Virus record (IMG/VR): IMGVR_UViG_3300028588_000812
Strand: one strand, 5' to 3'
Source: an uncultured virus (IMG/VR IMGVR_UViG_3300028588_000812)
Lineage: Duplodnaviria; Heunggongvirae; Uroviricota; Caudoviricetes
Length of the DNA: 64,000 nucleotides
Positions 6,150 to 56,227 of the stretch are shown here, in pieces; the first letter of the stretch is position 1, and the number at the start of each line of letters is the position of its first letter. Made by a program: the position numbers and the translations under genes. The notes under the pieces were generated by a model. It saw nothing but the letters and a program-made list of their open reading frames with translations, was not told the origin of the DNA and searched no databases.

Positions 6150-6217
6150 TTACTTTGTTACATTTATAGTATAACATGTTTTCTAAGTTCATGCAAATAT
6201 TTTATTCAGTTATTTTG

Positions 6218-6292
6218 TCGCTTCAATTGGATTTGAACCAATGCTCACAACACTCGGAAATATTGCGCTCTACCTGACTGAGCTATGAAGCG
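6218..6292 (-). tRNA. Atypical tRNA with 8-nt anticodon loop (TTTCCGAG)
   Basis: Body near-identical to 6076-6149; 18-nt anticodon arm. Confidence 0.65.
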
Positions 6293-21498: not shown

Positions 21499-22230
21499 AT
21501 GATCAACAAATTGAATTTTCTTAAAAACTGGACACTCTTTGAGAAAATATGGCTTTTCACATCAGCCGCAATCCTATTTGTTCTAAGCCTCATCTGGCAT
21601 GACACGCCATTAGGCTTCGTTTCATCAATTACAGGTATCCTTACCGTAGTATTCGCAGCTAAAGGTAAAATAGCGACCTTCTACTTCGGTTTAATCCAAG
21701 CTGGAACTTACGCTTACATCGCTTACGGTTACGGATTATATGGAGAAGCAATGCTTAACGCTTTCTTCTACTTCCCAACACAAATTATTGGTTTAATTCT
21801 ATGGATGCGCCACAAGAAAAACCAGACAACAGCAGTTAACGGTGAAGACATTTACGCCAAACGTCTTACAAAGAAACAACTACTTATTTTCAGCCCAATT
21901 GTTCTCGCAGCAGTTCTTGGTTACGCGGTTATTCTAGAAACAATTAACGCTCAACAAGTAAGACTAGACAGCATCGCAGTTGTTCTTTCAATCGCAGCAC
22001 AAATACTTCTACTATTACGTTACGCCGAACAATGGATAATGTGGATTGTAGTTAACGTTCTAACAATTGCGTTATGGTTCTTCACCTTAGTTCAAAGTGG
22101 TGGAAACGACTGGGCAATCTTCGCCATGTGGGTAGCCTTCCTAGTTAACTCAGTATACGGTTACATTAACTGGCGTAAACTTTCAAAACCAGAAAACGTA
22201 GAAAAGAAAAAACAGGAAGTTCTCGCATAA
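21499..22230 (+). CDS. pnuC: Nicotinamide riboside transporter
   Basis: Multi-TM; AKGK, YGEA, EQWxxW, NSVYGYINW. Confidence 0.92.
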   Translation: MINKLNFLKNWTLFEKIWLFTSAAILFVLSLIWHDTPLGFVSSITGILTVVFAAKGKIATFYFGLIQAGTYAYIAYGYGLYGEAMLNAFFYFPTQIIGLILWMRHKKNQTTAVNGEDIYAKRLTKKQLLIFSPIVLAAVLGYAVILETINAQQVRLDSIAVVLSIAAQILLLLRYAEQWIMWIVVNVLTIALWFFTLVQSGGNDWAIFAMWVAFLVNSVYGYINWRKLSKPENVEKKKQEVLA

Positions 22231-23303
22231 TGGATTTTGGACCAGAGATAGAAACATACAAAGGCAAAACCATTGGAGTATATGGAGGCAAATTCTTCCC
22301 CTTCCATAACGGACACCTAAGCTTCATACTTAAAGCCCAATCAATGGTAGATATCTTATTCGTAGTATTACAATATGATGAAGACCACGAAAAAGCGTTA
22401 ACCAAAAATACACCATACGAATGGGTAGAACCACGCAAACGTGAAAGATGGATTACCGAAGAACTCAAACAGTTACCAAATATCCGTGTAACATCACAAT
22501 ACGAAAGACGCTCACCAGAGCATATGTCAGACCCAAGTATAGCTGTTACATACAATCAACTGTTAGAAGAAGTAGGTGGTAAAATTGACATTATATTCAG
22601 TAATACACATGATTATGATGAATACTTTGCCAAATATTTGCCTCAAAGCAAACATGTAGTTTTCTATGAAAACAGAGAAGAAATCAATATCTCCGCAACA
22701 CAAATTAGAGAACAGAACGTTTACAACACATGGGAATACTTACCTCATTCTGTTCAAACGTTTTATACCAAACGTGTGGCCTTATGTGGAATAGAATCAG
22801 TAGGTAAAACACACATGAGTAAAATGTTAGCTAAAAGTTTCTCTACTGTGACAGCACCTGAATATGGCCGTTTCTATTATGACGAACTGAATGCCTACAC
22901 AGGAATTGACCAAGAAACAGATTATATTGATATTGCAACAGGTCATTGTTATCTTCTTAACCAGGAAGTGAAAAAAGCACACAAAGTTCTTATTGCTGAT
23001 TCCGACTTAATCTACACACAGTTTTTCTACATGCAATCATATGGTAAGAAAAATGAAGTGTTAGATTTAATGATTAAACAACATGCAGATAAGATTGACG
23101 AATATTTATACATTGAGCCATACAATTTTCATGAATTAGATGGAACAAGGTTACATGTAGATGATGAAAAACGTGCACAAAATAATGCTCAACTTAAAGA
23201 ATTATATTTAAGTTATGGTGTAAAAATTACTTTCATCGCAGAAGCAGATAGAGACAAACGTTATCAAGCATGTGTTAACAAAGTAAAACAAATATTAAAC
23301 TAA
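22230..23303 (+). CDS. nadR: Bifunctional NMN adenylyltransferase / NR kinase (NadR without HTH)
   Basis: GGKFFPFHNGH, ISATQIR, GIESVGKT, EYGR; TAATG coupling to pnuC. Confidence 0.92.
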   Translation: MDFGPEIETYKGKTIGVYGGKFFPFHNGHLSFILKAQSMVDILFVVLQYDEDHEKALTKNTPYEWVEPRKRERWITEELKQLPNIRVTSQYERRSPEHMSDPSIAVTYNQLLEEVGGKIDIIFSNTHDYDEYFAKYLPQSKHVVFYENREEINISATQIREQNVYNTWEYLPHSVQTFYTKRVALCGIESVGKTHMSKMLAKSFSTVTAPEYGRFYYDELNAYTGIDQETDYIDIATGHCYLLNQEVKKAHKVLIADSDLIYTQFFYMQSYGKKNEVLDLMIKQHADKIDEYLYIEPYNFHELDGTRLHVDDEKRAQNNAQLKELYLSYGVKITFIAEADRDKRYQACVNKVKQILN

Positions 23304-32385: not shown

Positions 32386-32958
32386 TTATATTTGTTTTGC
32401 TCTTTTGTATTCAAGTTCCCATATGTCTTTTAGGTTGATGGGGATGTTGTTTAAATTTAGGGTGTTTTGTGTGTGTGAGGTAAGGTAATCGCTTTCTTGG
32501 GGATATCTGCCTGTTTTTGGGCAGACTTGTTTTAGTTCTATTTTTTCTTCTTTTGTGGAGAAGTTTATTTCTGCTTTTGCACGGAGTAGAAGGTGTTGTT
32601 GTTCGTGTTCTTTGCCGCATGGGCATGTCATGTTATCGCTGGTATCAGGGCTGTAGTTGATGTTGATTGGTAAAAATGTGTCATCTGGTGTTACTTTGGT
32701 TGAATTTGTGTAACCGTACATTTGGTTGAGTAGCGGTTTGATTGTTTGTATTCTTTGTTCATCTGCTTCGTTTTGTACTGGTTGTGCTAGTGCTAGTAGG
32801 TGTTCTAGGAATTGTACTATTTCTTGTGGCTCGGTGATGACAGTGTTGTTTCTTTTGTAGGTGTGTTTTAGAGTTATGGTGTTGTTTGCTAAATTTATAC
32901 CTATTTTGATTTTGTCGTAAGCATACTTTTTGTATGTGATTTCTTGGTAAATAAACAT
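32386..32958 (-). CDS. Tandem paralog family, copy 10
   Basis: MFIY, FLEHLLALA, LNQMYGY, CPCG. Confidence 0.85.
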   Translation of the reverse strand: MFIYQEITYKKYAYDKIKIGINLANNTITLKHTYKRNNTVITEPQEIVQFLEHLLALAQPVQNEADEQRIQTIKPLLNQMYGYTNSTKVTPDDTFLPININYSPDTSDNMTCPCGKEHEQQHLLLRAKAEINFSTKEEKIELKQVCPKTGRYPQESDYLTSHTQNTLNLNNIPINLKDIWELEYKRAKQI

Positions 32959-32988
32959 GAGTTGTTGTTTTCCTGTTCTATATGTGGC

Positions 32989-33591
32989 TTATATTTGTGT
33001 TGGTTCGGGGTAGTGTGGTTGCCAAAGTTTTTTGTATTTTTCTGGTATTTGGTTGAGGTCTAAACTGTTTTGTTGGTAAACTGTTCGGTATTCTTTTATG
33101 GGAGTGCGGTAACCCATTAACTGAATTCCTGTTTTGGGGCATCCTTGTAGTAGTTCTAGTTTTTCTTCTCCTGTTGTGAAGTTTTTGGATGCTTTGCCTG
33201 CCGCGTTTATAGCTTGTTTGTGTTCTGTTCCGCAAACACATGGTAACACTATGTGCGGTATGTAGTGCCATGTGTTTAAATTTATTTGTAATGAATTGTC
33301 ATCTGGTTTTGTTTTTGGTGATTTTATGTAACCGTACATTTGGTTGAGTAGTGGTTGTATTGTTTTTATGTTTCGTTCGTCTTGCCAGTCTTTTGCTGGT
33401 TGTGCTAGTGCTAGTAAATGTTCTAGGAATTGTATTATTTCTTGTGGGTCTGTGATGACAGTGTTGTATTCTTTACGGTCTAACCCTGTGTAGGTGTGTT
33501 TTAGTTTAGTAGTATGTTTGGTTAGATTGATACCTAAGTGTATGGTGTCGTAGGTGTATCTGTTATAGGGGAGTTCTTTATAAATGAACAT
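32989..33591 (-). CDS. Tandem paralog family, copy 9
   Basis: Same motifs plus NFTTGEEKL. Confidence 0.85.
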   Translation of the reverse strand: MFIYKELPYNRYTYDTIHLGINLTKHTTKLKHTYTGLDRKEYNTVITDPQEIIQFLEHLLALAQPAKDWQDERNIKTIQPLLNQMYGYIKSPKTKPDDNSLQINLNTWHYIPHIVLPCVCGTEHKQAINAAGKASKNFTTGEEKLELLQGCPKTGIQLMGYRTPIKEYRTVYQQNSLDLNQIPEKYKKLWQPHYPEPTQI

Positions 33592-33594
33592 GTT

Positions 33595-34188
33595 TTATAT
33601 TCTCGTTGCTGCTCTGTAGTGTAGTTTCCATGCACTTTTGTATGGTTCTGGGATGCGGTTTAGGTTTAGTGTGTCTTGGGTGTAAACTGTAAGGTATTCT
33701 TCTTCTGGTGTCCAGGCCACGATACTTTTTGGGCATTCTTGACGTAGTTCTAGTTTTTCTTCTCCTGTTGTGAAGTTTTTGGATGCTTTTGCTCTTACCC
33801 CTATTGAACGCCTTTTGTGTCGTTCGCCGCATGGGCATGGTACGTCTGTTGGACTTACGCTGGAGTAATATCCAAGGTCTACTTCTAGGAATGTGTCATC
33901 TGGTTGAATTTCTGCTGATTGGATGTAACCGTACATTTGGTTTAGGATTGGTTTAATTGTTTCTATTCTTTGTTCATCTGCTTCGTTTTGTACTGGTTGT
34001 GCTAGTGCTAGTAGGTGTTCTAGGAATTGTACTATTTCTTGTGGCTCGGTGATGATGGTGTTGTGTTTTGTTCGGTCTAAACCTGTGTAGGAGTGTTTTA
34101 GTTTGGTAGTATTTTTGGCTATGTTGATACCAAATTTTACTTTGTCGTAGGTATATTTGTTGTAGTAGAATTCTCGGTAGATGAACAT
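33595..34188 (-). CDS. Tandem paralog family, copy 8
   Basis: Same motifs. Confidence 0.85.
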   Translation of the reverse strand: MFIYREFYYNKYTYDKVKFGINIAKNTTKLKHSYTGLDRTKHNTIITEPQEIVQFLEHLLALAQPVQNEADEQRIETIKPILNQMYGYIQSAEIQPDDTFLEVDLGYYSSVSPTDVPCPCGERHKRRSIGVRAKASKNFTTGEEKLELRQECPKSIVAWTPEEEYLTVYTQDTLNLNRIPEPYKSAWKLHYRAATRI

Positions 34189-34215
34189 TTTGTGTGGTTT
34201 TCTATTTGATGGTGG

Positions 34216-34857
34216 TTAGAGTCTTGTTGCTTTGCTGTAGCGTGGTCGCCAGATAGCTTTTAGGTCTTCTGGTATGAGTGCTAGGTTTAGGTTTTCTTGT
34301 TTGTATGTTATTGAGTGGTAACCTAATGTTGGTATACGTTTTCCGTGTGTGGGAAAGTAGTTGTTTATTTCTGGTGTTTCAGGTAGTTTTGCTTTAACAC
34401 ATGTGTGATGTAGTTCTAATATTTCTTGACCTGTTGTAAAGTTTTTACCTGCTCGTACTATTAACCCTATTTGTTTAGCGTCGTGATTTGTTTGATAGTC
34501 GGGACATGCGATATCTACATTAAGTTTGTAAGTATCGCATTCTATGTCTACTGGTAAATATTTGTGGTCTTGGGTTGTTTCTGACGATTTGATGTAACCG
34601 TATATTTGGTTTAAGAGTGGTTTGATTTCTTTTATTCTTCGTTCATCTTCTTCATCTTGCGCAGGTGTTACTAATGCTATTAGGTGTTCTAGGAATTGTA
34701 CTGCTTCTGCTGTTTCAGTAATGGTGGTGTGATATCTTTTACGATCTATACTCACGTAGTTGTGTTTTATTTTTAGGGTGCGTTTATAAAGGTTGATGCC
34801 TATTTTTATAGTTTTATACGTGTATTTATTGTATTCGACTTCTTGGTAGATGAACAT
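34216..34857 (-). CDS. Tandem paralog family, copy 7
   Basis: Same motifs. Confidence 0.85.
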   Translation of the reverse strand: MFIYQEVEYNKYTYKTIKIGINLYKRTLKIKHNYVSIDRKRYHTTITETAEAVQFLEHLIALVTPAQDEEDERRIKEIKPLLNQIYGYIKSSETTQDHKYLPVDIECDTYKLNVDIACPDYQTNHDAKQIGLIVRAGKNFTTGQEILELHHTCVKAKLPETPEINNYFPTHGKRIPTLGYHSITYKQENLNLALIPEDLKAIWRPRYSKATRL

Positions 34858-34884
34858 TTTGTGTGATTTCTAGGTTGTGGTGGT

Positions 34885-35487
34885 TTATATTCTTTTTGCT
34901 TTGTAGTATTGTGGTTGCCAGATAGCTTTGTATTGTTCTGGTACGCTATTTAAGTTTAGTGTGTTTTGTGTGTAGGTTATGAGAAAATCTTCTTCAAGCA
35001 TTAAGTTTGCGTTAGATTCTGGGCATTCTTGGCGTAGTTCTAGTTTTTCTTCTCCTGTTGTGAAGTTTTTTCCTGCATTTCCTATTATGCCTATTATACC
35101 TATTTTACAATGGTCATGCTTTTGCCCACAGGGGCATGGTAATAAGTCTATATTTGACAAAAAACGAACCGTCATACCGACTGATAGAAAAGTGTCATCT
35201 GGTTTTACTTTTGCTGATTTTGTGTACCCGTACATTTGATTTAGTAGTGGTTCAATTTTTTTTATTCTTTGTTCATCTGTTTCATCTTGTGCGGGTTGAG
35301 ATAACGCTAATAAGTGTTCTAAGAATTCCACTATCTCTTGTGGTTCGGTGATGATAGTGTTGTGTTTTATGCGGTCTGGGCCTGTGTAGGTATGTTTTAG
35401 CTTGATAGTGTTTTTAGCTAAGTTAATACCAAATTTTATTTTGTCAAAAGTGTACTTGTTATAATCAAATTCTCGATAGATGAACAT
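34885..35487 (-). CDS. Tandem paralog family, copy 6
   Basis: Same motifs. Confidence 0.85.
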   Translation of the reverse strand: MFIYREFDYNKYTFDKIKFGINLAKNTIKLKHTYTGPDRIKHNTIITEPQEIVEFLEHLLALSQPAQDETDEQRIKKIEPLLNQMYGYTKSAKVKPDDTFLSVGMTVRFLSNIDLLPCPCGQKHDHCKIGIIGIIGNAGKNFTTGEEKLELRQECPESNANLMLEEDFLITYTQNTLNLNSVPEQYKAIWQPQYYKAKRI

Positions 35488-35540
35488 TTTGTGTGGTTTC
35501 TAGGTTGTGGTGAGTGTTTAGTGTGTTGTTAACGTTGATG

Positions 35541-36143
35541 TTATCTTGTGTACCATTTGGGTTCCTCTACATCTGTTATATATTTGGGTATTTGCGTGAG
35601 GTCTAAGGTTTTTTGTTTATGGAACGCTACGTCTTTATGTTGGTGTCGACAGTTGAATGTTACTTTTAGTTTTTCTTCACCTGTTGTTAAATTGATTTTA
35701 GCTTTAATCTCTGCTGTTAGGTTGTAGTTATTGTTTGGTTGACCACAGGCGCATGTTGTATAGAATGGTCCTTCGTGTTCTTCATATGCACTATAATCTG
35801 GACCATATTCTAATCCTACTGGCAAGAATTTGTTTGACTTCTTTGCGTTTGGTAAGTTTAGGTAGCCTCGCACTTGGTTAAGTGCCTCTTCTGTGTCTTT
35901 TATTCTTTCTTCATTTTGTATTTGCAGATATTCATTTATTTCTGGTGGGACTGTTTCTGCTAATGCTAGTAGCTGTTCGAGGCATGCAACAATTTGTTCA
36001 GGCTGTGTTTCTTTTGTTTCATGGTGCTGCTGACGCTCATAGTAATCATGAATTAATTCAACTGTATGGTTTTCTAGGTTGAAAAATATTCGTACAGTAT
36101 GGTATGTATACCTACGGTAATATATGTTTATTGTTGTGAACAT
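35541..36143 (-). CDS. Tandem paralog family, copy 5
   Basis: LEQLLALA, CACG, NLTTGEEKL. Confidence 0.85.
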   Translation of the reverse strand: MFTTINIYYRRYTYHTVRIFFNLENHTVELIHDYYERQQHHETKETQPEQIVACLEQLLALAETVPPEINEYLQIQNEERIKDTEEALNQVRGYLNLPNAKKSNKFLPVGLEYGPDYSAYEEHEGPFYTTCACGQPNNNYNLTAEIKAKINLTTGEEKLKVTFNCRHQHKDVAFHKQKTLDLTQIPKYITDVEEPKWYTR

Positions 36144-36167
36144 AATCTATTTACACTTTCCATAGTT

Positions 36168-36797
36168 TTATTTAGTAATTGTTGCGCCTGCATATGTATA
36201 CCATTTTGGTTTTTCTATTTTTGTTATATATTCAGGTATTTGTGTTAAGTCTAATGTATCTTGTTCATGAATTATAATATCTTCATGTTGGTGTCGACAT
36301 TTTAGTGTTACTTGTAAGTTTTCTTCACCTGTTGTGAAGTTAATTTTAGCTTTTATGTCTGCTGTTAAATTACGACTTTTATTTGTTTTGCCACAGGCGC
36401 ATGTTGAATAGAATGGCCCTTCTGTTGTTGCGTAGGCTGCACCACCTGGTCCATGATGTACTGGCATTGATACAAAATAATCTGTTATTTCTGCTTTTGG
36501 TAATTTAAGATATCCGCGCACTTGATTGAGGATTTCTTTTGTTTGTTGTAGCCTTTGTTTATTTATTTCTTGCAAATCTTCTGCTGCTTCTAGGTGGCCT
36601 GGTTCTGCTAAAGCAACTAGCTGTTCTAGACATGCAATTATTTGTTCTGGCTCTGTTTCACGTGTTGTATAACTTTTACCGTCATCATCACGATATTCAT
36701 GGATTAAGTTAATTGTATGGTTTTCTAATTGGAACGTTACTTCTACGAAAGTATATGTATATTGGTTATAAGATATATTTAGTGTAATATGATGCAT
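36168..36797 (-). CDS. Tandem paralog family, copy 4
   Basis: LEQLVALA, CACG, NFTTGEE. Confidence 0.85.
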   Translation of the reverse strand: MHHITLNISYNQYTYTFVEVTFQLENHTINLIHEYRDDDGKSYTTRETEPEQIIACLEQLVALAEPGHLEAAEDLQEINKQRLQQTKEILNQVRGYLKLPKAEITDYFVSMPVHHGPGGAAYATTEGPFYSTCACGKTNKSRNLTADIKAKINFTTGEENLQVTLKCRHQHEDIIIHEQDTLDLTQIPEYITKIEKPKWYTYAGATITK

Positions 36798-36805
36798 AAT
36801 TTATT

Positions 36806-37426
36806 TTATGGCTCCCATAACTCTACTTTGTCATTCCATGCTATCTGCATTTTTTGTTTCCATATTTCAGGTATTTGTTCAAGGTCTAAGGTATTTTGTT
36901 CATGTACGGTGTCATATGTGTGTCTATGTTGACACCAGTTTGTTATCTTTATTAACTCTTCACCTGTTGTAAAGTTTTTGGTTGCTTGTGCATAGTTCAC
37001 TACGACAGTTTCTGCTGTAGTTAAACCACAGGTGCATCTTACATGGCGAACGACATTGTTATGGTATCCCGTGTAATCACGGTGTTGGTAACTTAATAGA
37101 ATTTCTAAAGGTTTTTCTTGAATTTCTACATCAGGGAAACCGAAGAAAGCGCGGGTATGGTTAAGTAATGGCTTGATTGCTCGTATTCTTTGTTCATCTA
37201 GCTCGTCTACTTCAACTAATTCATCTGTTGAGGGCCTTGCTAACGCTAAAAGTTGTTCTAGGGCTGCGATTACTTGTTCGGGGTCAGTTACTTTTGTGGC
37301 GTAACGTGTCCACGATCTATCATAATAGTCATGAACTAAAGCTACTTCTTTGGTCACCAAATTTAGCCTATATTGTATGGCATTGTAATTATATTTAGCA
37401 TATTGAATGTTTTGAAAAATATACAT
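36806..37426 (-). CDS. Tandem paralog family, copy 3
   Basis: LEQLLALA, CTCG, NFTTGEE. Confidence 0.85.
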   Translation of the reverse strand: MYIFQNIQYAKYNYNAIQYRLNLVTKEVALVHDYYDRSWTRYATKVTDPEQVIAALEQLLALARPSTDELVEVDELDEQRIRAIKPLLNHTRAFFGFPDVEIQEKPLEILLSYQHRDYTGYHNNVVRHVRCTCGLTTAETVVVNYAQATKNFTTGEELIKITNWCQHRHTYDTVHEQNTLDLEQIPEIWKQKMQIAWNDKVELWEP

Positions 37427-37428
37427 TT

Positions 37429-38070
37429 TTATTTTACCTTTAGTGGTTTGGTGTATTGCGGTTGAAAACGTTGTACTAAGTTTTCGGGAAGCATATTGAG
37501 GTCTAAGGTGTCTTGCCTATAATAGCTGTACCAACCTCCCATGTGGGAACAATATTGGTCTACGCTTGTAATTTCTTCTTTGGTTACTAAGTTTATGAAA
37601 CCATTTACTTTATATGTGTATGGTGCTGTTGTATTTTCTGGTGTTTCTTGTATTCCACAGACACAAAGAAGCGGGGCATCAGGGTTATTCCATTTATTGA
37701 CATGTTTGTTATTTTTCAACGAAATATGCATTGCAAGATATTGTTCTTCTGCAATTTCTTCTGTAGTTTTAACTAACTCTATGCCTAAATAATGTTTTAT
37801 CTGGGTGAGCCAAAAGTTTATGCCAATGTCTATACTTTGGCCATATACGCCTTGATTTGAGTTAATTGCTAATAAGTGTTCTAAAATAACAATAATTTGT
37901 TCTGTATCTGTTTCTTCCGTTGTATGGATTTTAACGTTATTTTCACCAAGTTCAGTATGTAACTCTCTGTAGGTATGGGTAAGCATAAGTTCTTTTGTGT
38001 CAAGATTAATTGTTAAATACAAATAATCATATGCATGTTGGGAATATGCTATGTAAGAGTAAACGTACAT
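37429..38070 (-). CDS. Tandem paralog family, copy 2
   Basis: LEHLLA, CVCG, QDTLDL. Confidence 0.82.
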   Translation of the reverse strand: MYVYSYIAYSQHAYDYLYLTINLDTKELMLTHTYRELHTELGENNVKIHTTEETDTEQIIVILEHLLAINSNQGVYGQSIDIGINFWLTQIKHYLGIELVKTTEEIAEEQYLAMHISLKNNKHVNKWNNPDAPLLCVCGIQETPENTTAPYTYKVNGFINLVTKEEITSVDQYCSHMGGWYSYYRQDTLDLNMLPENLVQRFQPQYTKPLKVK

Positions 38071-38072
38071 AT

Positions 38073-38669
38073 TTATTCGTAGCTTTTTTCGAAGTGGAAT
38101 GGTTTGTTATTAGCCTGAATTTCTTGTGGTAGGTATTCAAGGTTTAGACTATCTTGGGTGTAGATAGTGTTGTACTCATCTGTGTGGTAGCAGTATTCTT
38201 GTACTGTAATTTCTTCTTTGTTTTTGGCTACGTCAATAAGTCCACGGATGGTAATGAATGGGCGTCCGTATTCTGCGTTGTCAATTGTTTTGTTACAATG
38301 ACAAATGCTTTCACCTAGTGGGTTCCAGCTACGGTCTGTGATACCTACTTCAATGTCAAGGTAATAGTCCTCTTGTCCGCTGTCTGCTGGCCCTGTGAGC
38401 GCTTTAATCTGGTTTAGCATGTGGTTGAGCGCAGCCGCGTTTTCGGGCTGTTCTACGGCGTTTAGGTCAGCTAGAAGCTCTGCAATGTACTGTGCTGCTT
38501 TCTCATCTTTGAGTTCTTCGCAGCCGTAACATCCGTAGCTGTGCATTAATTCTACAGTTTTGTTTGCTAGGTCAAATGTGACATGAAGTTCATCACGATC
38601 ATAACCTCCACATGTTGAACATGAGGAAGTTGAGGTAGTAGGAAAATCAATTTGTTGGCTTGCAAACAT
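38073..38669 (-). CDS. Tandem paralog family, copy 1 (most divergent; extra CxxC pairs)
   Basis: LNQIK, CHC, YCYH, QDSLNL. Confidence 0.78.
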   Translation of the reverse strand: MFASQQIDFPTTSTSSCSTCGGYDRDELHVTFDLANKTVELMHSYGCYGCEELKDEKAAQYIAELLADLNAVEQPENAAALNHMLNQIKALTGPADSGQEDYYLDIEVGITDRSWNPLGESICHCNKTIDNAEYGRPFITIRGLIDVAKNKEEITVQEYCYHTDEYNTIYTQDSLNLEYLPQEIQANNKPFHFEKSYE

Positions 38670-40275: not shown

Positions 40276-40442
40276 ATGTTTTGTTGCTATAGTAATAGTA
40301 TAACATATTTTTTATTGCTATGCAACTATTATCGGCAGTTTTAAGTTTTAAGGTGAACCCACATACCCGTCAGAGCATAGTTACCCTTGCTACGTTTCCG
40401 TCCTGGGGGAGTTAGCCATGATAACGTCATGTGAGCCACCAG

Positions 40443-40515
40443 AGCCTCCTGCCGGACTCGAACCGGCCACCTTTTCATTACGAGTGAAACGCTCTACCTG
40501 ATGAGCTAAGAAGGC
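40443..40515 (-). tRNA. tRNA-Thr(CGT)
   Basis: Cloverleaf. Confidence 0.93.
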
Positions 40516-40949: not shown

Positions 40950-42275
40950 TTAGTTTCGCAACTCTTGAAGCTCATAACTATGAGGAATATCAACAATTTG
41001 ATAACCGTGTTGACGAATTTGTTCACGAAGAAAATATGATTGCGCCCATTCTTTATTAGTACGAGCTTTCAAACGTTCTTGCGCTAACTGTTCAACTTCC
41101 TGAGGAACGACAACTGTTCTAATGGAAAACACTTTCATAAAACCATTAATCTTTTTTATGAAATCAATGAATGACTGATTTGGCTTTAAATTATTTGTAT
41201 TAGCTTGTTTAACTAAAGTCATAAGAGCAGCTAAAGCCATTGGGGTATTAAAGTCATTGTTTAGGGCTTCAAAGAAAACATTTTTAAGTTGTTCAACTTG
41301 TTCATTAGTAATTTCGTCACCTGACGTTTTGTTATAAAAATCGTTAATACGTGCAAGTTCTTTTTCTGCTTGCAATAGTGTCGTGTTATTGATTTCTATA
41401 TTAGAACGGTAATGATGTTTAATGAAATAGTATCTTAATATCTCAGGTTGTGTTGTGGAATGGAAATTTCTGATGCGTGTAAAGTTACCTAAGCTTTTGG
41501 ACATTTTAGTTCCGTTGACTTCCAACAAACCAGTATGCAACCACATTTGTGCTAAGGGATGTTTACCGGATAAGCTTTCCATTTGAATAATTTCAGCTTC
41601 ATGATGAGGGAAAATTAAATCACTTGCTCCACCATGAATTTGATATTGTTCCCCAAACACTTTTTCAGTAATAGCGGTATCTTCAATATGCCAACCTGGT
41701 CTACCGTTACCGAAATTAGCTTCCCAGTATGGTTCGTTAGGTTTGTTATATTTCCAGATAACAAAATCGCCTTCATTAATTTTATTGCTTGTATTAATGC
41801 GACTGTGTTCCTGGTTTTCGCTATGATAGAACCTAGGTTCAGATGGAGCTTTATTCAAATCAAAATATACACCATCATTTTTGATAATATATGCTTTACC
41901 CATATCAAGTAGCCTTTGGACTTGACTGACGATTTCTGGAATGAAATCACTAGCGTTAGCTATTTGGTCATATGCATTATTTTTAAGCCATGCCATATCC
42001 ACAAAAAATTCTTTACTGTATTGTTCAGCTACATCTTTATAATCAACATTTAATGTGTTAGCTTTATTGATAATTTTGTCATCAATATCAGTAATGTTGA
42101 TAAGATATTTGACTGTTGTGAGTTGTTTTAAATACTCTATGATGAAGTCAAATTGTGTGTATGTTTTGGCGTGACCCAGATGACTGTAATCATATACAGT
42201 TGGTCCGCAGACAAAGAAATTAATGTGTTGCTGTGTATTGAATGTCTCTAACTGTTTAGTTAGAGTGTTGAACAT
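40950..42275 (-). CDS. cysS: Cysteinyl-tRNA synthetase
   Basis: CGPTVYDYSHLGHA, NITDIDDKII, GRPGWHIED, DLIFPHHE, KMSKS. Confidence 0.95.
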   Translation of the reverse strand: MFNTLTKQLETFNTQQHINFFVCGPTVYDYSHLGHAKTYTQFDFIIEYLKQLTTVKYLINITDIDDKIINKANTLNVDYKDVAEQYSKEFFVDMAWLKNNAYDQIANASDFIPEIVSQVQRLLDMGKAYIIKNDGVYFDLNKAPSEPRFYHSENQEHSRINTSNKINEGDFVIWKYNKPNEPYWEANFGNGRPGWHIEDTAITEKVFGEQYQIHGGASDLIFPHHEAEIIQMESLSGKHPLAQMWLHTGLLEVNGTKMSKSLGNFTRIRNFHSTTQPEILRYYFIKHHYRSNIEINNTTLLQAEKELARINDFYNKTSGDEITNEQVEQLKNVFFEALNNDFNTPMALAALMTLVKQANTNNLKPNQSFIDFIKKINGFMKVFSIRTVVVPQEVEQLAQERLKARTNKEWAQSYFLREQIRQHGYQIVDIPHSYELQELRN

Positions 42276-42331
42276 TTTACTTCCATAATGGAAATCGTTT
42301 CCTTTCATATAAAATGTTATGCATTAATGCG

Positions 42332-51237: not shown

Positions 51238-51311
51238 TGGAAACGACGAGAATCGAACTCGCCCCACGAACCCTGCCAGGGTTCATCGCCTTCCTTGGTA
51301 CATGCGTTCCC
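51238..51311 (-). tRNA. tRNA-Ala(GGC)
   Basis: G3:U70, atypical D arm. Confidence 0.8.
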
Positions 51312-51324
51312 ATATTTTGTTTTG

Positions 51325-51400
51325 CGACCGTAAAGGGATTTGAACCCTCGCTCTCTACCGTGACAGGGTAGCGCTTTAACCCAGACTAAGCTATACGGCC
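51325..51400 (-). tRNA. tRNA-Asp(GTC)
   Basis: Cloverleaf. Confidence 0.93.
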
Positions 51401-51405
51401 ATGCT

Positions 51406-51576
51406 ATTTAAGTAGGTGTGCTGTTACGCTAAAGGCAATCGGGAGGTTACTCCACAAAATGAAGACAGGTCAGATTATTCTCTACAAACTCTTCGCTTCC
51501 AGGGAGCTAACTAGGTTAACTCTTGGCACCACTCTTTAAAAGATGGCTGCTTCTAAGCCAACTTCCCTACTTAAAT
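51406..51576 (-). ncRNA. 23S rRNA GTPase-associated-centre (H43/H44) mimic RNA, copy 1
   Basis: GGAAGTTGGCTTAGAAGCAGCCATCTTTTAAAGAGT-[insert]-GCGTAACAGCACAC closed by ATTTAAGTAG/CTACTTAAAT. Confidence 0.8.
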
Positions 51577-51584
51577 GTATTGCG

Positions 51585-51658
51585 TGGCTAAGGTGAGAGT
51601 CGAACTCACTATGTCCTCCTTATCAGAGAGGTACCTATACCTAATTGGAGTCTTAGCC
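51585..51658 (-). tRNA. tRNA-Ile(GAT), atypical D arm
   Basis: Loop CT-GAT-AA. Confidence 0.78.
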
Positions 51659-51718
51659 ATAACTTGCTGTTTAGCCAGTGCAAGTAATTCCTGGTTCTCT
51701 CACAAATCTGTGAGTTCG

Positions 51719-51803
51719 AGACGCTGACCGGATTCGAACCGGCGTGCGGGTTTTATCCCTAACTGGTTTGCAAGCAGCTTCCTAACCATTCGGACACAGC
51801 GCC
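51719..51803 (-). tRNA. tRNA-Cys(GCA), long V arm
   Basis: Loop TT-GCA-AA, U73. Confidence 0.75.
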
Positions 51804-51857
51804 ATATGATTATACATTTCAGGTTAATCTTCCTGCTAGGTGCGTTTCCTAGATGCG

Positions 51858-51930
51858 TGGGTCCACAGGGAGTCGAACCCTGATTTCATGGGTAAAAGCC
51901 AAGAGTATTAAACCATTATACGATAGACCC
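51858..51930 (-). tRNA. tRNA-Lys(TTT)
   Basis: Paralog of 46215-46287. Confidence 0.85.
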
Positions 51931-52050
51931 GCAAGTGTTTTGCTACGTGTTACAAAACATGCCTAACTTTGTTTTCACGCTCCCGTTTCCTGTAGAAACA
52001 ATTAACGTTCTTCAACTTATGTCAAAGAACAGGGTAGGTTAGGTTTTGCG

Positions 52051-52139
52051 CGGAAGCGATGGGGTTCGAACCCACGTCAGAGTTTGACCCCTGCTAACGG
52101 TTTAGCAAACCGTCCTCTTTACCATTTGAGTACACTTCC
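52051..52139 (-). tRNA. tRNA-Ser(GCT)
   Basis: Cloverleaf, long V arm. Confidence 0.92.
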
Positions 52140-52145
52140 ATGTTG

Positions 52146-52219
52146 CAGCGTGAGAAGGACTTGAACCTCCAACTGACATCCATATCTGGACCGCCTCTTG
52201 CAATTTGGGCTACCACGCT
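52146..52219 (-). ncRNA. tRNA-like RNA, anticodon undeterminable
   Basis: Acceptor and T arm present; anticodon loop collapsed (TCCA-GATA-TGGA). Confidence 0.55.
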
Positions 52220-52300
52220 ATATCCCTTATATGCTAAGGGAAGCAGTCAAGAGTAGTGCCACCGTATTGTGGTCTATGCCTTGAAAGTTTATTTGTTACG

Positions 52301-52375
52301 TGCCTATGAGAGGACTCGAACCTCCAACTAGCTGCTTCTAAGACAACTTCCTCTACCAGATTGGGATACATAGGC
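52301..52375 (-). tRNA. tRNA-Leu(TAG), short V arm
   Basis: Loop CT-TAG-AA. Confidence 0.8.
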
Positions 52376-52420
52376 AAAGTTTTGATTATAAGTTTATTTA
52401 CAACCAAAACTATGGTGGTG

Positions 52421-52606
52421 TTAAAGATAAAATTCTTTACCTTCATATTCAACGATGCGAACTTGCACGTCCGAACGGCAGTAGTCGCAGCAACCTTGTG
52501 TTTCAATATCAAAACGAATATCTAGGATATCTGTATCAATATTTTCATAACCTAATAATGTGAGAAGGTTAATTGCTTCGTTAAATGTTTCTTTGTAACT
52601 TGTCAT
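52421..52606 (-). CDS. Small hypothetical protein (start MTSYKE)
   Basis: AAGGA SD; CCDYC motif. Confidence 0.6.
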   Translation of the reverse strand: MTSYKETFNEAINLLTLLGYENIDTDILDIRFDIETQGCCDYCRSDVQVRIVEYEGKEFYL

Positions 52607-52770
52607 TATGGTCCTTACTTTCTGTCCTCTGTGGACCAAATTCCAAGATACTTCATGGGTAAGGTATAACGTTTGTTCGGTAGTAGAAGAGCCGGAATCC
52701 AACCGACCTCTCTTGACGTGCGCCAAGCGGTGCCATTTCCTTAGCAGCGACCTGTCTTTTACTACTTTGC

Positions 52771-52842
52771 TCCCCCGGAAGGACTCGAACCTTCAACATC
52801 CTGGTTAACAGCCAAGCGCTCTGCCAATTGAGCTACAGGAGA
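52771..52842 (-). tRNA. tRNA-Asn(GTT)
   Basis: Cloverleaf. Confidence 0.93.
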
Positions 52843-53119
52843 ATATAGTGATTGTTTAGCCACGTTCACTTAGACGCGGAAGCTTATGTGGAACTATTAG
52901 CGGCCTACCGCCTAATCGACATAGTTACTGTGCCGTTCACGTTATACGTGAAATGATATTACTTACAAGGTCTTATATCAAGGTTTCCTTATAAGTCGTC
53001 CTTAGGGACTTTATTACAGCAATGTTTCCTTGTGCCGTTCATTTGTACAACAACCCCTACCGCTATTGTTGTCTGTAAACACTCACACCACCATTTGTGT
53101 TTACGCCAATTCTTTTACT

Positions 53120-53590
53120 CTATACTGATTTTTCCCAAATCATAAAGTCAGTGCCAACATAATAAACAACGTGAGGGTCCACATGGGTTGCTGTGAAACC
53201 AGACGTAGAAAGAACATGCTGCATAGCTTTTGAACCAGGATGCACACTTGCAGTGAAATGTTTAGTTCCAGCCGCTGTAGCCTTTTCAAGTAGTTTATCT
53301 ACAATTAAGCGACCAGTACCATGTCCTCGGTTGGAAACATACACACCAGAAATATATCCGGTAGTTGTATCAATAAAGCCGGTTCCAACGATGTTGTTAT
53401 CATGTCGTACAATGAGACAAATACTTGTTTCAAGTTTTGAAAGAACCTCAGCAGGATTATATTCACCATTAAGCCATGCACCAATATTAGGATGGTCAAG
53501 ATGTGGTGAAGCAAGTGATACGCTTGTTACATGTTCAATCACTGATTGAACATCTTCAGCAGTCATTGGGTTGATTACTAAATCAGTCAA
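53120..53590 (-). CDS. GNAT-family acetyltransferase
   Basis: YV.NRGHGTGR.I acetyl-CoA motif A; TTG start with AAGGA SD. Confidence 0.8.
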   Translation of the reverse strand: MTDLVINPMTAEDVQSVIEHVTSVSLASPHLDHPNIGAWLNGEYNPAEVLSKLETSICLIVRHDNNIVGTGFIDTTTGYISGVYVSNRGHGTGRLIVDKLLEKATAAGTKHFTASVHPGSKAMQHVLSTSGFTATHVDPHVVYYVGTDFMIWEKSV

Positions 53591-53612
53591 GCTTTGTTCC
53601 TTTTCATTTGCG

Positions 53613-53686
53613 TCGGGATGACAGGATTTGAACCTGCGACCCCCTGTTCCCAAAACAGGTGCGCTACCAAACTGCGCCACATCCCG
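53613..53686 (-). tRNA. tRNA-Pro(TGG)
   Basis: Cloverleaf. Confidence 0.95.
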
Positions 53687-53782
53687 AAATAAGTTTCCTT
53701 GCGGTTGCTTACATATATTACTATACACTATTATCGGCTTTAGTTCAAGTTTTTAACAACTTTTACTAAAACTTGTATAGAG

Positions 53783-53870
53783 TGACGCGGACGGGAATCG
53801 AACCCGCAATCTCTTTTAAGAGACACTAGATTGAAAGTCTAGCTGCCCATGCCAGTAGAGCGACCGCGCC
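53783..53870 (-). tRNA. tRNA-Glu(TTC), long V arm
   Basis: Loop CT-TTC-AA; V hairpin TCTCTT/AAGAGA. Confidence 0.78.
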
Positions 53871-54040
53871 ATATCTTCACTTTTCATGTGTCAAATAAAT
53901 CACTACTTTATTTTTAACATGCGTTGTGAAGGGTTTTCTTATCCTATTCCCATCAAATATTATGATGACAGTTGGATACAAGTAGTGAACTTGTACCCAT
54001 TTCTGCTAGAAGACCTATCTAGGAGGTTTAAGAAGTTGTT

Positions 54041-54269
54041 GGTGTCCAGTGTGCTTTTACGCCAAATACTCTAACCCAAGTATATCCAAAACCGGGCGGT
54101 CCTTACACCCGTTACATTTTCATGGTTAGTTAGTAATACCATTACTTGCTATTTCGGCTTACCCTGAAAGGAACTTACTTCCAGGCTCTAGGTGCGGGCC
54201 TTACCTAACGTCTGTCCCGCTTGTAACTCTTTAAAAGGTGGCTGCTTTTAGGCCAACTTCCTGAGCACC
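54041..54269 (-). ncRNA. 23S rRNA GTPase-associated-centre (H43/H44) mimic RNA, copy 2
   Basis: CAGGAAGTTGGCCTAAAAGCAGCCACCTTTTAAAGAGT-[insert]-GCGTAAAAGCACACTGG closed by GGTGCTCAG/CTGGACACC. Confidence 0.8.
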
Positions 54270-54271
54270 TG

Positions 54272-54345
54272 TGCCCCCTCAGAGACTCGAACTCTGGACC
54301 CACTGGTTAAAAGCCAGTTGCTCTAACCAACTGAGCTAAGGAGGC
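54272..54345 (-). tRNA. tRNA-Lys(TTT)
   Basis: Cloverleaf. Confidence 0.95.
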
Positions 54346-54385
54346 AAACATAGTTTCCTATGTAAACTTTGGTTATTTACTAAAT

Positions 54386-54571
54386 TTAGTAACTATTGTG
54401 GTGGCCTGCACCATACGACATTCCACCGGCTGTACCACGCATGGTTTCTTCGCTGGTAGGAATTTCTCTAGGGTCGTAATATGAATCAAGTTTTGCGTTA
54501 TTTCTCCTACTGATAGCTAAATAAATTGTTAATCCAATAATTGCTATTAATAGTACCGCTATAATCCACAT
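54386..54571 (-). CDS. Small single-TM protein
   Basis: N-terminal hydrophobic helix. Confidence 0.7.
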   Translation of the reverse strand: MWIIAVLLIAIIGLTIYLAISRRNNAKLDSYYDPREIPTSEETMRGTAGGMSYGAGHHNSY

Positions 54572-56132: not shown

Positions 56133-56153
56133 TTAGTGTGTATATGTGTTACG

Positions 56154-56227
56154 TGGAATATGTGGGACTCGAACCCAGTCTTTTGCTGCCGTCTAACAGC
56201 CGTTCTCACCCGTTGAACTAATATCCC
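56154..56227 (-). tRNA. tRNA-like RNA with Ala acceptor (G3:U70) and 6-nt anticodon loop
   Basis: GGGATAT/ATATTCC-A; arm GCTGT-TAGACG-GCAGC. Confidence 0.6.

Follow-up and report, generated by a model that had tools for sequence, protein, structure and literature searches.

We report here that a 229-nucleotide (nt) non-coding RNA, encoded on the minus strand at 54269..54041 among the transfer RNA (tRNA) genes of a very large phage-like element, belongs, as the second of two copies in our window, to a large family of phage non-coding RNAs, which are self-closed homologs of the GTPase-associated center (GAC), the piece of 23S ribosomal RNA (rRNA) that protein uL11 binds and that translation GTPases contact. 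The window is the whole 64,000-nt (64-kb) stretch of the uncultured virus record IMGVR_UViG_3300028588_000812 (Caudoviricetes), and the count of two applies within it. We refer to the RNA at 54269..54041 as copy 2 and to the other member as copy 1. An initial annotation, made from the sequence, had described a second, diverged GTPase-center mimic near the 3' end of a tRNA-Lys(TTT) gene, and we find the sequence to be as described. On the minus strand copy 2 begins after a gap of 2 nt from the tRNA 3' end, and it is matched over its full length (model positions 1-152; 72.6 bits, E 1.2e-18) by R1, a covariance model that we trained on 35 short-insert members of the family, copy 1 among them but not copy 2.

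The two ends of copy 2 rebuild helix 43 (H43), the junction and helix 44 (H44) of 23S rRNA, while the closing helix is its own and an insert sits in H44. From 5' to 3' the parts are GGUGCUCAG; GAA; a GUUGGCC-UAAAAGCA-GCCACC hairpin; UUUUAAAGAGU; a 163-nt insert ending in UUUG; GCGUAAAAGCACA; and CUGGACACC. In carrying UUUUAAAG and GCGUAAAAGC, copy 2 has both the junction with the 1082:1086 pair and an H44 hexaloop closed by G-C and C-G pairs. It also has the U1090-A1101 pair, an insert that starts after 1090 and the first insert helix, P1 (UAC/GUA), followed by UUUG. In a full 23S rRNA H44 is continuous; here it is interrupted by the insert, and the flanks are tRNA genes. Positions follow E. 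coli numbering, in which we take the 58-nt rRNA domain to span 1051-1108. Its anchors are A1067 and the 1095-1098 loop, identified from PMC2719339 and PMC8661411. The features of copy 2, all on the minus strand, are as follows.

54271/54272-54345, minus strand: tRNA-Lys(ttt), called by ARAGORN; the Rfam tRNA model scores 71.1 bits at 54272-54345
54261..54269, minus strand: 5' strand of the closing helix (H42-like), GGUGCUCAG; 8/9 positions pair with 54041-54049; present in the minimum free energy (MFE) fold; the helix covaries family-wide
54226..54260, minus strand: the stretch equivalent to E. coli 1056-1090, with the H43-like hairpin, the junction and the 5' strand of H44, based on the Rfam large-subunit (LSU) rRNA match and the R1 alignment
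54067..54225, minus strand: inserted domain with P1 (3 bp), hairpin GCGGG/CCCGC, hairpin CCUGGAAG/CUUUCAGG, more hairpins and the conserved GGAUAUAC
54063..54066, minus strand: UUUG linker; UUUR is family-specific and not in rRNA
54050..54062, minus strand: upper H44 hairpin with hexaloop GUAAAA, and the 3' strand (1091-1103), from the sequence and the R1 alignment
54041..54049, minus strand: 3' strand of the closing helix, CUGGACACC, pairing with GGUGCUCAG at 8/9 positions

A phage RNA family homologous to the GAC

The search for further copies that the initial annotation had called for gave exactly two R1 matches in the window, copy 2 and copy 1 (106.2 bits, as a training-set member), the next best score being 8.3 bits. 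A 19-nt H43 motif occurs three times against 0.09 expected, a number reached in 0/100 shuffles; the third occurrence is the anticodon arm of a tRNA-Leu. The Rfam bacterial LSU model recognizes the H43 hairpin and junction of copy 2 (model positions 1097-1144, 14.8 bits, E 0.024 in a 551-nt search) and the corresponding part of copy 1 (model positions 1093-1148, 23.5 bits, E 2.4e-5).

Beyond the window, an exact IUPAC scan of IMG/VR with a 32-nt H43-plus-junction motif, in which the 3' core and linker were left free, returned 32 loci (set 1). At every one of the 32 an insert occupies the identical position, whereas a direct run into the H44 loop, as in real rRNA, occurs in none (0/32). Each has a 3' core and then a strand complementary to the bases preceding the core; the 3' cores are variant in four of the 32 loci (3 distinct elements), most members keep the H44 loop form G-U-A-R-N-A, with variants in three of the 32 loci, and UUUR, on which this search placed no demand, precedes every 3' core shown. 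A second scan of IMG/VR with a family-specific 3' motif (UUUR plus the H44 loop) found at least 120 loci, and among the matches listed (L033-L112) R1 matches 76 of 80 at E <= 0.001, one of the 76 (L111, 19.8 bits) being doubtful. Altogether we collected 97 distinct full elements, with inserts of 27-369 nt (median 131).

Covariation was counted on a 35-sequence alignment, over the structure taken from rRNA, the closing helix and the opening four pairs of the insert. The proportion of paired cells was 89.3% (65.3% in shuffles) and the covariation score was 0.626 as compared to 0.163 in shuffles, none of 500 being as high; with partners slid it was at most 0.174. In these 35 sequences all 11 pairs of the closing helix vary on both sides. 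The H43 hairpin (1057:1081, 1058:1080, 1059:1079 and 1062-1064:1074-1076, with a 9-nt loop) has 99% of its cells paired and covaries at 4/6 pairs: 1057:1081 is AU in 30 and CG in 5, and 1058:1080 is UA in 20, AU in 7 and GC in 5. In the junction, 1082:1086 is UA in 18, CG in 10 and AU in 2. The 1090-1101 pair is U-A in 35/35, position 1101 being fixed by the search pattern in most of them. A covarying helix opens the insert right after U1090 and closes just before the UUUR linker, and H44 therefore becomes a three-way junction.

The 97 members were retrieved by patterns that fix most of the 3' core and favor the 5' core, so that the conservation counts that follow are biased, and the occurrence of UUUR in 97/97 is fixed by those patterns; least biased are the 5' cores from the second scan and the 3' cores from the first. 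Six positions are invariant in 97/97: U1060, C1072, A1077, A1085, G1087 and U1090. A stands at position 1067 in 80 members, replaced by G in 15 and by C or U in 2; position 1061 mostly has U (62), with A in 24. According to PMC2719339, U1061A stabilizes the tertiary fold of the 58-nt domain and thiostrepton resistance is greatest when A1067 is mutated. What the GAC fold needs is thus retained in the family, often with the stabilizing A1061, while one of the main factor- and drug-contact bases is relaxed.

A trivial explanation would be that copy 2 is a dead fragment of host 23S rRNA, or host DNA that contaminated the assembly. Such cases do exist. We considered Paenibacillus phage Pd_22F (L175, MZ092003.1, ~83.9-84.0 kb) as a carrier and rejected it, as its match is genuine 23S rRNA near the record end that continues into rRNA; this stretch is host DNA or contamination. 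Copy 2, however, has its own closing helix, its own insert and the family's UUUR linker, and is flanked by tRNA and not rRNA. The covariation, the R1 score and more than 100 independent loci of the same design exclude decay, and we give this explanation practically no credence. The initial annotation's view that a selected RNA family, and not a chance rRNA fragment, is involved is therefore strongly supported.

Cultured phages carry the family as well. Unannotated matches came up when isolate phage genomes were searched with blastn, and the loci that we fetched and scored with R1 were these.

Pseudomonas phage UNO-G1W1: 95.9 bits, full-length
Pseudomonas phage pf16: 92.2 bits, full-length
Aeromonas phage 4_4572: 87.8 bits, full-length
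Cronobacter phage GAP32: 84.7 bits, full-length
Xanthomonas phage XacN1: 84.1 bits, full-length
Ralstonia phage RSP15: 70.3 bits, full-length
Vibrio phage 2.275.O: 36.7 bits, full-length
Acinetobacter phage ME3: 27.4 bits; the match stops inside the insert and is not counted as complete
Pectobacterium phage CBB (IMG/VR record): 42.4 bits

Seven cultured phages thus have a full-length R1 match, and all seven matches lie outside same-strand annotated genes. In UNO-G1W1 an opposite-strand coding sequence annotated as 'hypothetical protein' (L178, 1573-1680) lies inside the element and is probably spurious. This element nearly fills the gap between two tRNA genes (7 and 6 nt to spare) and that of pf16 also lies between two tRNA genes, ending 8 nt before the next, while the GAP32 and XacN1 copies are located between protein genes. 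A gene annotated as 2'-5' RNA ligase directly precedes the XacN1 element (L154).

Rfam 15 holds no such family. We found no description of a phage GAC-like RNA in a full-text literature search that lacked subscription journals and supplements, and '23S' occurs zero times in the accessible text of the XacN1 genome paper (PMC5852040). New here are the occurrence of both copies in a single element, the cultured carriers listed above, the recurrent structured insert classes, the tRNA-flush ends, the A1067/A1061 pattern and the evidence from RNA libraries.

Inserted domains and the two copies of the window

Copy 1 occupies the whole gap between two tRNA genes and is laid out as follows.

51401..51584, minus strand: spacer containing copy 1 (51577..51405), spanning the whole gap between a tRNA (51585-51658) and tRNA-Asp (51324-51400)
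51566-51576 with 51406-51416, minus strand: closing helix of copy 1
51531-51565, minus strand: core of copy 1
51430-51530, minus strand: insert of copy 1 with UUUA
51417-51429, minus strand: H44 part of copy 1

The tRNA directly upstream (51585-51658, minus strand) scores 45.1 bits with Rfam and was missed by ARAGORN. As had been proposed from the sequence, the closing helices and inserts of the two copies are unrelated while the insertion point is identical; in BLAST clustering of inserts both are singletons. At E <= 10, Rfam searches of copy 2, copy 1 and the XacN1 copy detected LSU similarity in the core only, and the inserts matched nothing. By eye, we had entertained the idea that the inserts mimic other parts of rRNA (the sarcin-ricin loop, the base of H42, H45/46), and the Rfam search gives this no support.

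By motif analysis, inserts of the family fall into recurrent classes. Class B (23/97 members, and also pf16, UNO-G1W1 and 4_4572) ends in a conserved module in which a GYC/GRC stem of 3 bp borders an internal loop (ACC / UAAG); the third pair of an inner 3-bp stem covaries (G-U, A-U, G-C, U-A) and the capping loops are of the GNRA or UAAC type (GAAA, GAGA or UAAC). Class A, found in XacN1, GAP32, RSP15, ME3 and several IMG/VR contigs, has a frame consisting of P1 (3 bp), RAG, a hairpin domain (Pa), P2 (AGGG/CCCU), then a 5' loop that is conserved, P3, and UAGA leading into the 3' strand of P1. The classes occur joined to varied core variants, and their own helices covary.

Copy 2 and its two relatives, the ortholog L158 from another IMG/VR record (G001) and L172 from a metagenome contig, all have the class A frame. 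Across the three, P1 covaries (UAC/GUA, GAC/GUC, GGC/GUC), the GCGGG/CCCGC stem is kept by compensatory change to GCGGC/GCCGC, and the hairpin with CCUGGAAG is kept as CCUGAG/CUCAGG; L158 has in addition a compensatory U-A in the upper H44 stem. Our search for copy 2 orthologs returned G001 as the one viral record, and 2/9 metagenome loci hold an element, one of them identical to the window. A metagenome contig with sequence identical to copy 2 (L164) is 791,393 bp long and, if it is one phage genome, would be exceptionally large.

Two smaller claims about the insert of copy 2 did not find support. A pseudoknot had been suggested, in which the loop of the GCGGG/CCCGC stem (UAGGU) pairs with ACCUA. 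The stem and the complementarity exist, and L158 has an analog (4/5 pairs; none was seen in L172, by eye only), but ACCUA can instead form a nested long-range helix in 3/3 relatives: ACCUAG/UUGGGU in copy 2, ACCC/GGGU in L158 and ACCCAG/CUGGGU in L172. The nested helix has the better support, and three sequences prove neither. It had also been pointed out that both inserts contain CCTGGAAG. This is correct, and the motif is found nowhere else in the window and in 3/97 family inserts, but the sharing is within chance, as 827/5000 shuffled insert pairs share an 8-mer; the MFE fold of copy 1 pairs CCTGGAAG differently.

The initial annotation had further envisaged a modular design of a uL11-binding handle with variable cargo. 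The modular part is supported by recurrent insert classes with covarying helices on varied cores, but inserts of 27-45 nt, amounting to a bare hairpin, exist among members, and because of these the core may work alone; the uL11 handle is a prediction from homology. The same observations bear on whether the GAC fold might be a stable, self-folding platform for an effector insert, with no ribosomal protein or factor involved. Such a platform could account for the class B inserts in 23/97 members, for the class A frame in XacN1, GAP32 and RSP15, each class having its own covarying helices, and for the stabilizing A at 1061 in 24/97. However, members whose insert is a bare hairpin exist, and a platform needed for its fold only should drift by compensation, whereas the unpaired loop and junction bases of the family are near-identical to rRNA in phages of diverse hosts. 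We therefore think a scaffold role of this kind unlikely.

Setting in the tRNA array and evidence from RNA libraries

ARAGORN finds 92 tRNA genes in the 64 kb, all on the minus strand; the largest number for a phage given in the abstract of PMC5852040 is 56, which the window exceeds. Two of the window's tRNAs have four-base anticodon calls (tccg at 6217-6292 and agac at 56153-56227). For the family we counted tRNA context in 93 unique IMG/VR elements, limited to the flanking sequence around each. A same-strand tRNA is present in the flank of 51/93 elements, and in none (0/93) are there opposite-strand tRNAs only. In 23/93 no more than 15 nt (mostly 0-9 nt) separate the end of an upstream tRNA from the closing helix, and in 19/93 a downstream tRNA starts within 15 nt. 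Copy 2 has this same placement, on the tRNA strand and flush with its neighbor. The remaining 42/93 elements have no tRNA in the examined flank, and tRNA-linked processing is therefore not universal.

Six leaf-litter metatranscriptome runs contain 40-44% of the sampled words of 51300-54400, and contigs were mapped in four of them. Contigs covering copy 2 were present in 4/4 runs, extending from 53890, 53922, 53928 or 54041 up to 54286-54400, and contigs covering copy 1 in 2/4 (51403-51521 and 51416-51567). Such contigs report presence in an RNA library and not ends, strand or level, and DNA carry-over is possible. Stretches of this 3.1-kb region, most tRNA genes included, have no contig, which carries no evidential weight. 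Two contigs of run X16 stand out: (i) one of 631 nt (depth 23.7) matches 54286-54041 and then continues into non-window sequence exactly at the last base of the closing helix; and (ii) one of 157 nt (depth 4.2), the single contig of its kind in a single run, joins 51583 back to 51403, or 51584 to 51404. The latter joint is the head-to-tail junction of almost exactly the inter-tRNA spacer and is a hint that copy 1 may exist as a circle. Of 5 element-bearing phage records, 4 have genes for RNA ligase (G001 has none), which says little because RNA ligase genes are common in large phages.

The anatomy just described raises the question of whether the elements are cis-acting spacers that organize the processing or transcription of neighboring tRNAs and have no function as free RNAs. 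Many members are indeed flush with tRNAs on one or both sides, and copy 1 fills its entire inter-tRNA gap. A spacer, however, would have no need to keep rRNA loop and junction sequences, and is at odds with the members that have no tRNA in the examined flank, with the GAP32 and XacN1 copies between protein genes and with the RNA-run contigs that cover the elements. We regard a purely cis-acting role as quite improbable.

Promoter-like and terminator-like sites around both copies occur at chance level only. A gene 0.3 kb downstream of copy 2 encodes a GNAT acetyltransferase, which we considered as a RimL-like stalk acetylase and set aside since its matches were generic GNAT ones only. The GNAT protein of G001 is 85% identical to it; in that record the copy 2 ortholog lies ~14 kb from the GNAT homolog, no element is near that homolog and there is no copy 1 ortholog.

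Elsewhere in the window, a tandem array of ~10 open reading frames of ~200 amino acids (32389-38669, minus strand) has no Pfam match (ten submitted) and no PHROG match (three submitted). At 21499-23300 (plus strand) a gene for a PnuC-like nicotinamide mononucleotide (NMN) transporter is followed by one for a NadR-like adenylyltransferase/kinase, which together look like an NAD salvage pair in a phage-like element.

Possible functions and comparison with known RNAs

The closest relative of the family, and its sole Rfam similarity found, is the GAC itself (the tip of H42, with H43 and H44; E. coli 1051-1108). The family retains the H43 hairpin with its loop, the 1082:1086 pair, the junction and the hexaloop of H44; unpaired bases are near-identical and pairs covary as in rRNA. 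In contrast to the rRNA domain, the phage RNA is a stand-alone gene of 100-440 nt outside the ribosome, with a freely varying closing helix, a domain inserted in H44 between 1090 and 1091, the UUUR linker and a variable A1067. Ribosomal protein operon leaders, such as the L10 leader (RF00557), resemble the family in being off-ribosome RNAs that imitate the rRNA site of a ribosomal protein, but they act in cis on the mRNA upstream of ribosomal protein genes and resemble rRNA loosely, whereas the phage RNA is near-identical to it. No leader of this type was matched by Rfam at E <= 10, and downstream of copy 2 lie tRNAs and the GNAT gene, with no ribosomal protein gene.

A third comparison is with the translation-related RNAs of large phages (tRNA arrays, transfer-messenger RNA (tmRNA) and signal recognition particle (SRP) RNA) and with ROOL and GOLLD, which PMC12286853 treats alongside tRNA arrays. 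The neighborhood and strand are the same, but tRNAs and SRP RNA are complete functional homologs whereas the GAC-like RNA is one domain out of a 2.9-kb rRNA. The ROOL and GOLLD models of Rfam gave no match in the window at the gathering score, nor in 20 related loci at E <= 1. The window does have a bacterial small SRP RNA (40346-40443, minus strand; 55.8 bits, gathering score 40) that abuts a tRNA-Thr (40442-40515), and a cysteinyl-tRNA synthetase gene at 40953-42308.

With about even confidence, we favor the possibility that the family members are off-ribosome uL11-binding RNAs, serving as a handle in a ribonucleoprotein (RNP) or as a sponge. We are led to this by three considerations: (i) phages that infect Pseudomonas, Aeromonas, Xanthomonas, Ralstonia, Cronobacter and Vibrio, and many uncultured phages too, keep unpaired loop and junction bases like those of rRNA, which exceeds what folding demands and points to a conserved ligand; (ii) in isolation the 58-nt rRNA domain is an independent folding unit that binds L11 as well as thiostrepton, according to PMC2719339; and (iii) a uL11 domain is encoded in 0/5 element-bearing phage records (controls were positive in 14/14 genomes), so that the ligand, if it is uL11, is that of the host. 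A plausible scenario is that the RNA would be transcribed together with the tRNA array and excised by tRNA-processing enzymes, with RNase Z or E acting at the 5' end and RNase P at the 3' end, as the tRNA-flush anatomy suggests. Once freed, it would fold like the isolated 58-nt domain and present this fold off the ribosome. The most likely partner would be host uL11, either held in a stable RNP or titrated away, and the inserted domain would supply a lineage-specific function.

Several observations weigh against this scenario. The choice of uL11 as partner is drawn from homology, and the insert could hinder uL11 binding. A1067 is replaced in 17/97 members; the site does not retain all of its ribosomal functions. 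In fold energy copy 2 does not surpass shuffled sequences (z -0.54), although copy 1 does have thermodynamic support (z -2.76). The XacN1 element is followed by what reads, by eye, as a strong terminator-like hairpin. The retrieval bias of the 97-member set, the members without a flanking tRNA and the possible DNA carry-over in the RNA libraries, all described above, fall on the same side.

The main rival to uL11 binding is that the RNA is a decoy for GAC-directed weapons: free, alone or with uL11, it would absorb a toxin or antibiotic that targets the GAC (a Tre23-type ADP-ribosyltransferase or thiopeptides) and so shield host ribosomes. As reported in PMC8661411, Tre23 ADP-ribosylates H44 of 23S rRNA, with protected fragments overlapping 1095-1098, and H43/H44 are bound by thiostrepton, nosiheptide and micrococcin. 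The H44 loop G-U-A-R-N-A kept in most set 1 members is in line with such a role. Location in a tRNA array would fit a translation-protecting island, tRNA arrays serving to replace attacked tRNAs. On the other hand, Tre23 is a toxin delivered between bacteria, and phage-defense systems are not known to target the GAC, none that does having been found in the literature searched. A1067 is the main determinant of thiostrepton binding (PMC2719339), and with G, C or U in its place in those 17/97 members, soaking up thiopeptides cannot be what the family does in general. A decoy role also leaves the variable inserts unaccounted for. We consider the decoy possible but doubtful. Binding of uL11 off the ribosome thus stays our preferred explanation, and the scaffold, spacer and dead-fragment explanations are all less likely than it.

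A more speculative elaboration, to which we assign a low likelihood, combines several of these elements. GAC copies would be cut from tRNA transcripts and some would be circularized, the closing helix placing the ends made by RNase Z and RNase P side by side, where an RNA ligase of phage or host could seal them; being nuclease-resistant, they would accumulate. They might then strip exchangeable uL11 from ribosomes, or trap a GAC-directed weapon of the host or a competitor, and could rewire translation control, for example uL11-dependent stringent signaling, while the insert targets lineage-specific partners.

The known translation genes of phages include those for tRNAs, tmRNA, certain ribosomal proteins and translation factors. 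The present family corrects the annotation of regions that are now blank or carry a spurious open reading frame, and it is a source of numerous naturally occurring variants of an RNA tertiary fold that ranks among the best studied, every one bearing a natural insertion at a three-way junction. It is abundant and is found in cultured phages of tractable hosts, namely pf16 (Pseudomonas putida), UNO-G1W1 (P. fluorescens), GAP32 and 4_4572, and the question of its function is therefore directly testable. If the proposal holds, a conserved, free-standing copy of an rRNA domain would represent a new viral route to the factor-binding site of the ribosome, or to those that attack it.

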